Shown in pieces: positions 3,278 to 8,266 of a DNA stretch of 8,266 nt. Source of the DNA: Amoebophrya sp. A120 (Eukaryota > Protista > Dinoflagellata). Under the pieces are notes generated by a model, which saw only the letters and a program-made list of their open reading frames with translations, did no database searches and was not told the origin of the DNA. Every line of letters starts with the position of its first letter. Position 1 is the stretch's first letter. The stretch spans positions 1 to 8,266 of the forward strand of contig CAJINV010000097.1 of assembly GCA_905178155.1 (NCBI GenBank). Direction: 5' to 3'. The position numbers and the translations under genes are program-made.

Positions 3278-6200
3278 ATGGCCCGTGGCCGCAGCGACAG
3301 TCGAGGGCGAAGCGGTGACCAAAATCAGCGACATATCCTGTGTAAAAACGTGTCCATAGAGTCCTCACGATGGTGAATATTATGACAGTGAACTACAACT
3401 CCCCCGCCTCCCCCTCATTCGTATGGCATGAACAGCAACACACGCAACGGCAGATATGTGGCTTCCGCATGACAAATCTGTACACGGATGGTAGTGCTGT
3501 AGTTTGATAAGGTTTCAAAATTTGGCATGCAGATAGTGCCTAAATAAGGCAAGATATGGATTTGGTATTTCTGTTTTTCATTTACAAATGAGGGCGGGGG
3601 GACCAGTTGTGCAGCACTCTCATAATGGGAATTTTGCATACACAAATAACCAACAAGGTTTGGCTGATGTTCTTGCGCGTTTGCGGATTTGCATGACAAA
3701 GCTGGGCCGATGGAGACGTTTTTGCACCACATGATACGACAAACCAGACGACACCGCGACAACAGCCGAACCCGGAAAAATATCGCGTGTAAGAGCATTT
3801 TTGCACAACAACTCGTAATAATTGCAGTTTATGCATGCGAAAGCTGGTTGCATAGACAATTTAGCATGGAAAATTGCATTTGTCATGCTGACCAAATTTG
3901 TAAATGCAATTACTACTTCTACGTAGCAGTACGATGCATATTTTCCACTTCATAAGAAATAACCGGGGCCGAGACCGCAGGCGAGACACGAGCCGGTCGC
4001 GAAGCGGCGGGCGGCACCAAAACAAGAGAAATAACAGAGACCAGCAACAGCAGAGCAACAACCGGTCGCGCTCTCCGTCGCCACCGCGGACGCCGCGCGC
4101 CCCGCCGACGGATTTACAGCAGTATGAAAAGGACCAGGAGAAGAAGGGGTGGCTGACCTGGTATCAAAAGGAGAAATCCCCCCTCCCCATATCAAAACGG
4201 AAATTTGTGATGCTGATTTGTGGTCACAAATCCGAGCTGTCTTGCTGGAGAGCACTGCAGGCCCAGACCAAGCGCGAGTAGAGAGGTTTTGGCCTAGGCA
4301 CTTAGCATGATAAACATCCGCGCTGTAGGCCCAACAGCATGACAAACCACCTGCATCATGCGGCGGAGCCTGTGGAGTTGCCTTCTTGCAAGACAGGCAC
4401 GATTTGTGGCCACAAATCAGCATGACAAATTTCCAAAAGTATACCGTTTCAGTATGGGGAGGGGGATTTTTCCTCTCAATACCTGGTTCGGCAGGAATAC
4501 GCGCGACCGGGAGCGGAATCGAATAAAGCCGGTATCAAATGTAAAAGTGCCTGGGTCTGGAAAGTTGGAACTTGTGATGCTATCTTTGGACTCTAAAAAA
4601 AATTGCATTGCATGACCAGCAAGAGGAACCACATTTGTGCTACGCGAGGAGGGCATTTGTCATGCGGAAATGGCATCAGGGAGCTTTCCAAAAATCTGTG
4701 ATGCTGGGTCATGCATTACAAGCAGCATCGGTCGTGCCAGACAAGCATGACAAGCCTTCCACTCTTCCAGACCCAGACATTTTTACATTTGATAGCCGGA
4801 GTGGCAATACCACGAGGAGACGGAGCTGTTCTATTTCATCCCGAAAAACCTCTACTTCAAGCTCGAGCCGGTCAACGACAAGCAAATTGCGACCGCGAAA
4901 CTCCACTTGAAACACGGGGGCGGGGGTATGGTCAGCGCGACAAAGTCCGTGCAGTGGAAGATTTTGCGGCCCGACGAAAATTTGGAAGACTGGGGCGACG
5001 AGAAAATGATCAAGTTGCAGAAAGCGGAAGAGATGCGCAACGCGCTGAAGACCGCGGAGTTTCACTCGTTCGACGAACGAAATGTGATGTCGGCCGCAGC
5101 CAGCACCAGCAGCAATATCCAACAAGTAGGTCTAGGTGCCCATACCGGAACTTCAACTTCGCAACACGCTGGAGCCAGCTCGTCTACCACCGCGGGGGGC
5201 GGTGCGCTATCAACTGTAAAAGTGTCTGGGTCTGGAAGATTCTGACACTTGTCATGCACGTTTTGCATGAGCCCTGACGTCTGTGATGCATGCCCTAGCA
5301 TCACAGACTTTTTGAGAGCTCCTTGATGCCTATTCCGCATGACAAATGCCCTCTCCGCGTAGCAAAAATTGCATTCCCTTTGCTGCTCATGCAATACAGA
5401 TTTTTTTGGAATCCAAATTCAGCATCACAAGTTGCATTCTTCCAGACCCAGACATTTTTACATTTGATATGCGCAAAGTCGGAGCAATTTGCGGTCCAAC
5501 AGCTTCGGTCCAGAGGATAACAACAGCAACTCCAAGATGATTCCAGATCCCTTTACAAAAATATGCCGGCAAGACACCGGAAACAGCGAAAAGAACAACG
5601 ACGGCGGGAATAACAATGTCACGAAAAACACCTCGAAACATAACCTCGGCGAGCATGGGTTAGCGACCAGTGCGCCAAGCGACAATCAAATGTTGGCCTC
5701 CTCCAAAAGCGGCAACCACCAACACCAACCCGACAGCATGTCCACGACTGCCTCCACCTCGACGTCAGCCTCCGGCGTGAAGTATGAAGAGGGGATCGTG
5801 CTGCAGTGGCACGAAGACCGGGGGTTCGGTATCAAAATGAAAAATCCCCTCTCCCCATATCGAACAGGAAAGTTGTGATGCTGGATTTGCGTACACAAAT
5901 CGGATTTGTCTTGCTGGAGAGGACTGCAGGCACATCTCACGCCCGAGTACAGAGGTTTTGGCCTAGGCGCTTAGCATGAGAAACGTCTGCGCTGTATGCC
6001 CAACAGCATCGCAAACCGCCTGCATAATACGGCGAAGCCTGTGGAATTGCCTTCTTGCAAGACAGACATGATTTGTGGTCGCAAATCAGCATTGCAAATC
6101 TTCTGCGACATACCTTTTCGATATGGGGAGGGGGGATTTTTCCCCGCGATATTCGGCTTCATTTCCCACTCTACCATGACCCCCGCCACCCCCACCTCCC

Positions 6201-8030
6201 CGGCGTCGCAGCAAACCCAGACGCTGTTCGTGTATCGCAAGAAAAAACTGTTTCACTGTGAACCTGTGATGCAGAGAACGAAACACCAACGCGTTTGTCT
6301 TGCTACACCTGCAACACAATGGATTTTTAGGCGTGTTTTCCATTGGAAAACGCGCATCACAGATTTTCTGTGTCATGTGTAGCAAATTTGTGATGCAGAT
6401 CTAGCAAAACCGTCAACAGTGAAACAGTTTTTTCCTGGGATATCGTGCACCGGAGAAATATTGTAGGAAGCACGTCGCAGCGCCCCATCAACTTGCCGGT
6501 GAACATCAAGGTTATTTTCACAATCGGAGAAGATAGCTCGAGTACAACGCAAGCGGCAAAAGACAGCTCGACAGCAAGTGGAGGTAACACCGCGGCTTCA
6601 GGAGCTGGTTTAAATAAGGACGATAAATCACTGGTGGCGCTGCAGGTCCAGATGATCGACCCGAAGACAAATAAACCAGCCTTGGTGCATATGAACAGCA
6701 GAAGTATCCTACTCGTATACTAATGCATTACAAATTTCCTCAGCATGGGGAATAAAATTTGTGATGCGGATCTACATTGAGAAAAAGATTTGTATATGCG
6801 TGACTGCAATACGAGTGCGATATCGTTTTGCACAGGATAGTGCACTCCGCGGACTACCATGCGAAAATCGAGCACAACCGGTATCGTCAGGAAAAATCCG
6901 CCCTCCCCATATCGGACTGGAAGTTTGTGATGCTGGATTTCCGTACACAAAGCAGTTTGTGTTGCTAGAATGGCAAGAGCCGCAGTTGCGGCCTTAATTG
7001 CAGGCATATATTGTGATGCTGTTTCCCACTTCCAGTTGCCTCCTGTCATGCGGAACATGCAAAAAGGCCTTCTCACGTCAGCCAGCACGACAGTCCGCAT
7101 CTTTTGTCTTCTAGCATGGCAGCATGATTCGCGGTCACAAATCAGCATCAGAAATTTCTAGCTTGAGTATGGGGTTCGGGGTTTTTCCGTTTGATAGCCG
7201 GCTGCGCATGCACGTCACGCTGGAGTCCCTGCAGTTGAGGTCCTGGTGCGAGTCCTGGCCCGGGAAGAAGCAGCACCTGCAGGACCGGTTATCAAATGCA
7301 AATATGTCTGGGTCTGGAAGGATGCAACTTGTAATGCTGTCTGCGGATTCTAAAAATACCTGTGTTGCATGAGCAGCAAAAGGAGTCAGTTCTTGGCACG
7401 CGGAGAGGGCATTTCTCATGCGTAATCAGCATCAAGTAGCTCTCAAAAAATCAGTGATGCTAGCACCAGCATCACAGACCTCATGGGTGAAGCAACATGG
7501 GCATGACAAGCCCCGACGCTTCCAGGCCCAGACATATTTGCATTTGATACCGGTTCTGCCTGAACCAGGCTTTGGAGGACATCGGCATGTTTTTCGGCGT
7601 TTTCGACGGACACGGTGGGGTGCAGGTGGCGGATTTGGTTTCCGATCGGCTGTTATCAAATGCAAAGATGTCTGGGTCTGGAACAGTGGTTGAACTTGTG
7701 ATGCGTGTCTTGCATTCCTGGAAAATCTGTGTTGCATGAGCAGCAAAAGAGGAGCTTGCTTTGTCATGCAAAAACGCAATTTGTGATGCGTGGTAGGCAT
7801 CAGCAGGCGCCTCTAAAAACTTGTCATGCCTGGCTGCCATTGCAAGCGCTTCAATCATGCTCAATTTAGCATCACAGATTTCCAGACTCAGACATTTTTG
7901 CATTTGATAGCTGTGGAAGCACCTTCTGTCGCACTACAAACAACGCACCGTGCTAGCGGCGTCCCGCGACGAGAAGTTGCTGCAGAGCCACATCGCAGCC
8001 TACTTGCAGTGCGACGCCGAAATCTGCGAA
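3278..8030 (+). CDS. Spliced multidomain protein, 3' partial: RS-rich region + OCRE-like repeat + cold-shock domain + PP2C/PPM phosphatase
   Basis: Exons, keeping the left repeat copy: 3278-3333, 3742-3780, 3960-4161, 4487-4532, 4800-5207, 5475-5829, 6157-6232, 6448-6689, 6845-6881, 7202-7289, 7555-7653, 7915-8030. Total 1764 nt = 588 codons with no stop. Translation: MARGRSDSRGRSGDQNQRQTRRHRDNSRTRKNNRGRD...KKGWLTWFGRNTRDRERNRIKPEWQYHEETELFYFIPKNLYF...EGIVLQWHEDRGFGFISH...QTLFVHRRNIVG...SWPGKKQHLQDRFCLNQALEDIGMFFGVFDGHGGVQVADLVSDRLWKHLL...AAYLQCDAEICE. Junctions can slide within the 5-bp repeats. Confidence 0.88.
3334..3736. mobile_element. Introner A (403 bp, contains a nested element)
   Basis: Direct repeat CGACA at 3329-3333 and 3737-3741. 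TIRs: TATCCTGTGTAAAAACGTGTCCAT versus right-end reverse complement TATCATGTGGTGCAAAAACGTCTCCAT. Confidence 0.85.
3381..3624. mobile_element. Nested TIR element inside introner A (244 bp)
   Basis: Ends are TATGACAGTG..ACAACT..CCCTCATTCGTA versus reverse complement TATGAGAGTG..ACAACT..CCCTCATTTGTA, with TAT...ATA termini. No intact 5-bp direct repeat (AATAT vs ATGGG). Confidence 0.6.
3781..3954. mobile_element. Introner B (174 bp, degenerate TIR)
   Basis: TAT...ATA ends. Repeats AAAAA (3776-3780) and AGAAA (3955-3959) differ by one base. Removal restores the frame. Contains TTGTCATGC. Confidence 0.7.
4162..4481 (+). mobile_element. Introner C (320 bp, family 1; strand is relative)
   Basis: Direct repeat CCTGG at 4157-4161 and 4482-4486. 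Subterminal IR AAATCCCCCCTCCCCATA / TATGGGGAGGGGGATTT. Colinear with element F. Confidence 0.92.
4533..4794 (+). mobile_element. Introner D (262 bp, family 2; strand is relative)
   Basis: Direct repeat GCCGG at 4528-4532 and 4795-4799. TIR of about 30 bp: TATCAAATGTAAAAGTGCCTGGGTCTGGAA / TTCCAGACCCAGACATTTTTACATTTGATA. Confidence 0.95.
5208..5469 (-). mobile_element. Introner E (262 bp, family 2, inverted relative to D/J/K)
   Basis: Direct repeat TGCGC at 5203-5207 and 5470-5474. Same TIR as D. Its reverse complement aligns with D along the whole length. Confidence 0.95.
5830..6151 (+). mobile_element. Introner F (322 bp, family 1)
   Basis: Direct repeat TTCGG at 5825-5829 and 6152-6156. 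Interrupts the CSD RNP1 motif GFG|FI. Interior closely similar to C, e.g. AGAGGTTTTGGCCTAGGC-CTTAGCATGA. Confidence 0.95.
6233..6442. mobile_element. Introner G (210 bp, family 3)
   Basis: Direct repeat TCGTG at 6228-6232 and 6443-6447. 27-bp TIR TATCGCAAGAAAAAACTGTTTCACTGT versus TATCCCAGGAAAAAACTGTTTCACTGT (25/27). Interrupts RNP2 LFV|H. Confidence 0.95.
6690..6839. mobile_element. Introner H (150 bp, imperfect TIR; one end resembles the outer end of A)
   Basis: Direct repeat GTGCA at 6685-6689 and 6840-6844. TAT...ATA ends. Inner IR ACTCGTAT/ATACGAGT. The right end read inward, TATCCTGTGCAAAACG, resembles the left end of A. Confidence 0.85.
6882..7196 (+). mobile_element. Introner I (315 bp, diverged family 1)
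   Basis: Repeats ACCGG (6877-6881) and GCCGG (7197-7201) differ by one base. The end GAAAAATCCGCCCTCCCCATATC matches C/F. Removal restores the frame. Confidence 0.88.
7290..7549 (+). mobile_element. Introner J (260 bp, family 2)
   Basis: Direct repeat CCGGT at 7285-7289 and 7550-7554. TIR TATCAAATGCAAATATGTCTGGGTCTGGAAG. Interrupts PP2C motif 1 QDR|F. Confidence 0.95.
7654..7909 (+). mobile_element. Introner K (256 bp, diverged family 2)
   Basis: Direct repeat GCTGT at 7649-7653 and 7910-7914. TIR TATCAAATGCAAAGATGTCTGGGTCTGGAA / TTCCAGACTCAGACATTTTTGCATTTGATA. Confidence 0.93.
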
Positions 8031-8059
8031 GTAAACTATTGCTGTCACTGTCACATTAC

Positions 8060-8172
8060 TAAGCCGTGCAAAAGTAGTATCTTGATGAGTAGAAAGGAGT
8101 AGATTTGTCATGCGGTATTGCAATTCCAATTCCTACGTAGTTCGTTGTCCGATATCACTTTTGCCCAGGATA
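8060..8172. mobile_element. Degenerate introner-like remnant, probably inside a 12th intron
   Basis: TAAGCCGTGCAAAAGTAGTATC versus right-end reverse complement TATCCTGGGCAAAAGTGATATC (16/22). Resembles the end of H and contains TTGTCATGC. No direct repeat. Confidence 0.45.
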
Positions 8173-8266
8173 TCCGGTCCCGAAGTTGCTTTCGCGCAAC
8201 ACAGATCGGCGATTTCTTTTCCCGGGCGGTATGGACTTTCTACGCCGCGCCCTGCGGGAGCCAGGG

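Follow-up and report, generated by a model that had tools for sequence, protein, structure and literature searches.

The host gene and its inserts

The window, by which we mean the whole stretch of 8,266 nucleotides analysed here, contains an RRP41-like (RNase PH) ORF at 338-1780 and, from position 3278 onwards, the 5' part of a second gene, which we refer to as the host gene. The host gene is interrupted by 11 inserts with TAT…ATA ends, in which a short motif, YTGTSATGC, recurs. Removal of these inserts, each together with one copy of its 5-bp duplication (TSD), and of one GT-AG intron leaves 630 stop-free codons; the match of the host gene to the Pfam PP2C family is weak (E = 0.046, below the cut-off). 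The features are listed below, inserts without strand and with their family (F0 to F5); signs in brackets give the strands of motif copies.

1493-1501, + strand: isolated motif copy within the RRP41-like ORF
2446-2454, - strand: isolated intergenic motif copy, exact match
3278-8266, + strand: 5' part of the host gene, with a PP2C-like GVFDGHGG segment, from reading frame and spliced contigs
3334-3736: insert A, F4 ends, nested F5 at about 3381-3624; TSD CGACA/CGACA; motif at 3467(-) and 3691(-); 408 nt skipped
3781-3954: insert B, F1; TSD AAAAA/AGAAA; a single exact motif at 3880(+), neither end with a nearby inward copy; 179 nt skipped
4162-4481: insert C, F3; TSD CCTGG; motif at 4205(+), 4337(-) and 4420(-); 325 nt skipped
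4533-4794: insert D, F0; TSD GCCGG; motif at 4572, 4657 and 4696(+) and 4745(-); 267 nt skipped
5208-5469: insert E, F0, orientation opposite to D, J and K; TSD TGCGC; motif at 5249 and 5281(+) and 5298, 5337 and 5422(-); 267 nt skipped
5830-6151: insert F, F3; TSD TTCGG; exact motif at 5873(+); 327 nt skipped
6233-6442: insert G, F2; TSD TCGTG; motif at 6264(+), 6354(-) and 6388(+); 215 nt skipped
6690-6839: insert H, F1; TSD GTGCA; exact motif at 6759(+), neither end with a nearby inward copy; 155 nt skipped
6882-7196: insert I, F3; TSD ACCGG/GCCGG; motif at 6925, 7011 and 7043(+); 320 nt skipped
7290-7549: insert J, F0; TSD CCGGT; motif at 7469 and 7501(-), one-mismatch variant at 7329(+); 265 nt skipped
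7654-7909: insert K, F0; TSD GCTGT; motif at 7696, 7761, 7781 and 7821(+) and 7869(-); 261 nt skipped
8031-8140, + strand: GT-AG intron, the twelfth intron, placed by reading frame; no TAT/ATA ends, no TSD; exact motif at 8105(+)

The TSD is perfect in nine of the 11 inserts and lies outside TAT…ATA. Contigs of two runs (X4 and X6) skip all 11 inserts exactly, each as the element plus one 5-bp TSD copy; the two runs represent one sample, are presumed to be RNA and, as contigs, hide rare isoforms. The inserts are short terminal-inverted-repeat (TIR) elements, and what is taken out each time is the element together with a single copy of the duplication. Their ends are predicted to pair at 0.49-0.98 in ten inserts and at 0.00 in B. 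An alternative GT-AG boundary for B, at 3815-3926, was rejected as it breaks the frame. The F5 element nested in A (3381-3624) has no matching 5-bp TSD at its TAT/ATA ends, and its flanks resemble a longer, imperfect repeat.

Both spliced contigs leave the window at 8031, and the 8031-8140 joint is not among the joints shown. This GT-AG intron has no BLAST match to the element families. Elsewhere, motif copies are also present in introns, or stretches resembling introns, that start with GT and lack TAT…ATA ends (L006 at about 2215-2290 and L014 at about 18240-18290, both by eye), and all three may be former introners that have turned canonical. Outside the inserts, the RRP41-like ORF has no introns and contains long low-complexity insertions; its protein is so divergent that a search at E ≤ 1e-5 returned only itself. 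The exon around insert F (5779-5829 plus 6157-6170) reads EGIVLQWHEDRGFGFI, which we take to resemble the RNP1 motif of cold-shock domains, and AAACCCTAACCCT, at 2911-2923 upstream of the host gene, is presumably a telomere-like or telo-box-like word.

Distribution and placement of the motif

The window contains 33 exact matches to YTGTSATGC where 0.43 are expected, a number reached in none of 200 shuffles. Thirty of these lie within the 11 inserts (2,934 bp; one to five per insert) and none in the 1,945 bp of exon. This bears out the original prediction of roughly 30 copies, on both strands and in all 11 inserts. It had placed the copies within 3467-8113, and had seen none in exons or RRP41 and one at about 2446. 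The exons are indeed free of the motif and the copy at 2446 is present, but the last copy (8105) lies in the GT-AG intron and not in a TAT…ATA insert, and the RRP41-like ORF has a copy at 1493, likely by chance. The predicted distances of inward-reading copies from the termini are all exact: D 40/42, E 42/40, J 40 (one mismatch)/41, C 44/54, F 44, I 44, K 43/33, A 38 (right) and G 32. An inward exact copy at 30-55 nt is found at 13 of the 22 insert ends, with none at either end of B or H.

An independent set of elements was drawn from 151 loci that were found by a pattern scan for the F0 TIR. We used 64 non-redundant stretches of at least 2 kb (593 kb), a set in which F0 is over-represented and from which shorter and nested loci were left out; these derive from a close strain, as their exons differ by a few bases from the runs in which the window is found. 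Calling elements without use of the motif (criteria TAT…ATA, perfect TSD and TIR of at least 9/17; about zero calls in shuffles) yielded 305 of them, with 8.8 motif copies per kb against 1.0 outside. After TSDs with one mismatch were added and homologous pieces masked, 1110 exact copies were counted in 125 kb of elements and homologous pieces and 91 in the other 468 kb (8.9 vs 0.19 per kb). The enrichment and the positional peak that the original prediction had proposed to look for are both present beyond the window, in the 593 kb from the close strain.

The 364 short elements in these 593 kb fall into 23 families, five of which are matched by the window inserts (BLAST). A de novo search for interior 8-mers common to the families ranked TGTCATGC first, with occurrences in 16 of the 23. 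Although the exact 9-mer is enriched as predicted, the motif proves wider and looser, with a consensus of approximately RAYYT(G/c)TV(A/t)TGCW; this looser form, which was derived from the same data in which it was then counted and was used for most later counts, is missing from just four of the 364 elements.

Among 328 pairs of ends examined without regard to the TSD, the TSD is perfect at 5 nt in 215, at 4 nt in one, and at 6, 15, 16, 24 or 25 nt in none. The GC content of TSDs is close to that of the flanks (0.57 vs 0.55), and the duplication shows no preference for sequence. The termini read TAT[C/G] rather than the TATC of the original prediction, the fourth base being C or G, and a family-weighted logo gives A at 0.69-0.82 at positions 11-15 (TAT itself was demanded by the caller). 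One F0 insertion (L055:2282-2547) is absent from a contig of run X1, which joins 2276 to 2548 and keeps a single 5-bp TSD copy; this insertion is polymorphic between close strains.

We found that the first inward copy of the motif has two preferred starts relative to the terminus. Of 728 ends, 98 have it at 31-34 nt and 225 at 40-44 nt, as against 3 at 1-30, 23 at 35-39, 17 at 45-51, 21 at 52-55 and 28 at 56-66; the remaining 313 have none within 66 nt. The pattern is kept without F0 (69, 14, 62, 4 and 21 ends at 31-34, 35-39, 40-44, 45-51 and 52-55 nt), and the exact 9-mer gives matching peaks at 31-35 and 41-45 nt. Across 39 inward family sites the best period is 10.1 (P = 0.007), with sites that are not independent and a broad peak (9-10.5); 32 outward family sites have no period (P = 0.26). 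In 13 of the 23 families the motif recurs as a direct pair with a spacing of 31-33 nt (three turns), compared with a null mean of 2 (P = 0.0002 for any spacing interval). A partial reverse copy often follows 6-8 nt behind the first member of the pair. The sequence that separates the two members has diverged while keeping its length.

This placement does not support the strictly bipartite end originally proposed. In addition to the 313 ends without an inward copy, the 291 stranded elements include only 101 with such a copy at both ends and 81 with none near either end, and in some families the motif points outward. The 5-bp TSD and the two preferred spacings (32 and 42), which differ by about one turn, are points of likeness to Transib/RAG, which the original prediction had loosely invoked. 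Transib/RAG ends, in the available text of PMC1131882, comprise CAC termini (a CACAATG-like heptamer) and an A-rich nonamer at a fixed spacer, with 12/23 pairing and a 5-bp TSD. The elements described here have TAT and not CAC termini, and their motif is not A-rich and occurs in several copies and in both orientations. Nor do the 364 elements follow a rule of the 12/23 type: 32/42 pairing is found in 26, 42/42 in 58 and neither in 128. Given also the equal GC content of TSD and flank, it is scarcely credible that a Transib/RAG-type transposase recognises these ends as RSS-like signals of heptamer, spacer and nonamer.

Part of the sharing of the motif reflects ancestry, as families have modules of 44-63 nt in common at 75-82% identity; family TIRs differ, yet the interiors are in part related. 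The motif could then be a functionless relic of a single ancestor with a 31-32 bp internal repeat, of which the 31-33 nt spacing might preserve the unit. We consider this improbable: in all nine families with at least eight copies, motif columns (0.82-0.94 identity) are better conserved than the interior (0.68-0.84), to a degree similar to the TIR, and the divergence of the spacer at constant length also tells against it.

Recognition as DNA or as RNA

Constraint on the motif is stronger on internal branches (0.44) than on tips (0.65), with corresponding values of 0.45 and 0.72 for the TIR, and the gap for the motif exceeds the simulated gap (0.03-0.09); we count this towards recognition as DNA. 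Singleton counts, which are confounded by column variability, were inconsistent. Motif copies read in the sense direction (597) and in antisense (535) are similar in number, and 35 and 44 of the 291 elements lack one or the other reading altogether. The orientation of insertions with respect to transcription is even in F0 (37:38) and F1 (11:10). For F2 the ratio is 19:4 in favour of sense by one strand call and 20:11 and 22:12 by two others; for F4 it is 5:16 by one call and 8:10 and 11:17 by two others. Elements are skipped in opposite orientations, as seen for D and E in the window and for two F3 copies in L055. The centre base of the motif agrees across arms in 50 of 124 elements, against a null of 50.0, whereas TIR arms co-vary (0.786 vs 0.747), and in close convergent pairs it agrees in 22 of 58 against about 20 expected. 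Because orientation is mostly even and the centre base lacks co-variation between arms, the balance favours recognition of double-stranded DNA, tied to the element ends. The motif is likely a grip for the moving enzyme rather than a splicing signal.

Alternatively, the motif may act in RNA, where it would be read by a splicing factor or snRNA, or where opposite copies would pair, fold the intron and join its ends, replacing a missing U1 step. All 11 skipped inserts contain the motif, as do all but four of the 364 elements in its looser form, and the GT-AG intron has a copy (8105). Motif bases are predicted to be paired more often than other interior bases (0.78 vs 0.60), half of this pairing being motif-to-motif. 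Sites read in the sense direction retain the motif marginally better (0.64 against 0.82 mismatches, P = 0.052), the constraint persists on tips, and position 3 of the motif shows weak co-variation (agreement in 112 of 124 elements against 109; P = 0.025, this test being one of four). F2 and F4 are each biased under one strand call, and the available text of PMC7789003 reports no U1 in Amoebophrya. Against these points, strand use is even overall, and F4, whose full copies all share a strand, is found inserted either way round; skipping also takes place in B and H without an inward copy near either end, and in F and G without one near the 3' end. The absence of co-variation at the centre base tells against pairing, and one-turn steps are not expected of single-stranded RNA. 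We therefore regard a role in RNA as unlikely; should the motif prove to be such a signal, this non-canonical splicing system would gain its first cis element.

The RNA reading GCAUSAC found no support as a branch point, as it lies 30-60 nt from the 3' end in 150 of the 291 elements only. F2, F4 and F7 in the loci of the close strain show possible opposite orientation biases (F2 and F7 sense, F4 antisense) which are unstable across the three strand calls.

The phase, the strand symmetry and the degenerate centre would fit equally well a DNA site for a host protein (a chromatin, bending or transcription factor) on which families have converged, as an aid to transposition or to transcription through the insert. 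The background outside elements (0.19 per kb) also exceeds that of the window shuffle (about 0.05 per kb). However, the terminus of the element is the reference point for the phase, and this links the site to the complex that cuts there; the residual outside copies that we viewed by eye lie often in motif-rich, decayed-looking DNA. A host-protein site is in our judgement quite unlikely.

Related systems and the candidate enzyme

The inserts likely match the published introners of Amoebophrya A120, and are in that sense already known. In the available text of Farhat et al. 2021 (PMC7789003), A120 introners begin with TAT, seven looser bases and a run of A, have inverted and direct repeats at their borders (direct repeats of 3-5 nt), measure about 240 nt, are removed non-canonically and form many families; neither a transposase nor U1 was found, and both the mobility and the splicing of these introners are stated to be open questions. 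The present elements share the TAT start, the looser seven bases, the A run, the border repeats, the length of about 240 nt, the non-canonical removal and the repetition of families across loci. They differ in having a clean 5-bp TSD outside TAT…ATA, whereas the text available from PMC7789003 and PMC12130899 gives terminal inverted- and direct-repeat motifs only, with direct repeats of 3-5 nt; that text also argues against general mobilisation by a transposase, unlike our reading. Most A120 families are filed as TIR DNA of unknown superfamily in the sections available of Gozashti et al. 2025 (PMC12130899), where family 38, which has integrase homology, a 5-bp TSD and TA/TA termini, is filed as Ginger. 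We found no mention of the internal motif or of its phasing in the literature searched, including the text and the searched supplements of these two papers, although the inverted-repeat logo figures of Farhat et al. and the preprint of Roy et al. 2023 could hold it; the available parts of PMC12005148, PMC11282704 and PMC12166617 contain nothing on the motif. The shared motif is real and under selection, and is likely an undescribed cis element within a known introner class.

Three integrase-related groups, described jointly in the accessible portions of PMC10045372, PMC6839031 and PMC2836005, come close to these elements. IS3EU/GingerRoot has TA…TA termini, a TSD of usually 6 bp, no target preference and capture of gene fragments; the present elements share its ends (TAT…ATA), the lack of target preference and the cargo, but a 6-bp TSD occurs in none of the 328 pairs. 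IS481EU has TNT…AYA termini, which fit TAT…ATA, and a TSD of about 4, 15 or 25 bp, which does not fit (one of 328 at 4 and none at 15, 16, 24 or 25). Ginger1/Ginger2 elements end in TGTNR, at odds with the TAT termini here, while the 5-bp TSD made by Tdd-4/5 (Ginger2/Tdd) is shared. As each group fails one defining feature, the elements resemble IS3EU/GingerRoot, IS481EU and Ginger/Tdd in the way they work but are not placed in any of these groups.

On present evidence the motif probably comprises the subterminal binding sites of one shared transposase, which would likely be related to integrases (IS3EU/GingerRoot-like) and not to Transib/RAG. One DNA-level factor serving all families is argued for by the common motif, its TIR-like conservation and its helical register with the ends. 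The original prediction of a single trans-acting protein thus gains from a motif that is common to, and conserved across, families with different TIRs and that peaks in position in 364 independent elements. It had left the choice between a transposase and a splicing factor; an unclassified transposase is the best candidate, and a splicing factor is disfavoured. We propose that one trans-acting transposase moves all families and reads the array of motifs on double-stranded DNA. In this model the cut would be made at the TAT terminus, with additional subunits gripping the motif on the same face of the helix, so that the TIR interior of each family could drift while motif and phase are retained. 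Such an enzyme is likely kin to those of IS3EU/GingerRoot, IS481EU and Ginger.

Subterminal motifs offer a precedent. In the text available from PMC1636448, the MITE Emigrant/Lemi1 has short motifs in either orientation near its ends which the transposase binds cooperatively, and similar motifs are cited there for hAT, CACTA and Sleeping Beauty. The present motif is likewise short, internal, near the ends and in either orientation, and its binding by a transposase is predicted. Whereas the Emigrant/Lemi1 motif is a repeated stretch of a single family's own TIR, the present one does not occur in the TIR, is common to families with different TIRs and lies in helical register. For the RNA step, SOS splicing of DNA transposons (PMC12779559, as far as available) is removal from mRNA without GU-AG sites that is triggered by pairing of inverted repeats, independent of sequence, imprecise and dependent on AKAP17A, CAAP1 and RTCB. 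Removal here is similarly non-canonical and is likely driven by TIR-TIR pairing and not by the motif; it differs in being exact at 11 of 11 inserts in contigs, in which rare isoforms would be hidden.

Searches for the enzyme covered less than 1% of the genome. In Pfam, none of 81 long ORFs (of 82 with at least 300 aa) and none of 12 cargo ORFs matched a transposase or integrase family, and a regular-expression search for integrase motifs in 940 ORFs found none. Viral contigs gave no TIR matches and 65 motif-pair matches, none BLAST-similar to the families. The motif can serve as bait for pull-downs, as a signature for an autonomous element and in the design of mutants that part mobility from splicing. 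A broader reading, which we put forward tentatively and hold to be possible but doubtful, is that a single undescribed transposase related to integrases, with TAT…ATA ends and a 5-bp TSD, would mobilise tens of thousands of introners in this lineage. Its specificity would reside in an internal motif that is modular and helically phased, and not in the TIR, so that new families with new TIRs could arise freely; the same architecture would enable a machinery that relies on TIR pairing and not on U1 to excise them exactly, whatever their orientation.

Several longer elements were also seen. Three of them (L074:11551-12698, L065:10792-11763 and L059:10001-11031) combine family ends with unique cargo or nested elements of other families, and the cargo ORFs tested in them had no Pfam matches. 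An 813-nt element with F0 ends (L014:1537-2349) contains unique cargo with a weak Seryl_tRNA_N match (E = 0.003, below the cut-off), possibly a captured gene fragment. Separately, a stretch of about 1.2 kb in a viral contig (L209, L213), BLAST-unrelated to the elements, contains 14 copies of the same 9-mer, all on the same strand.
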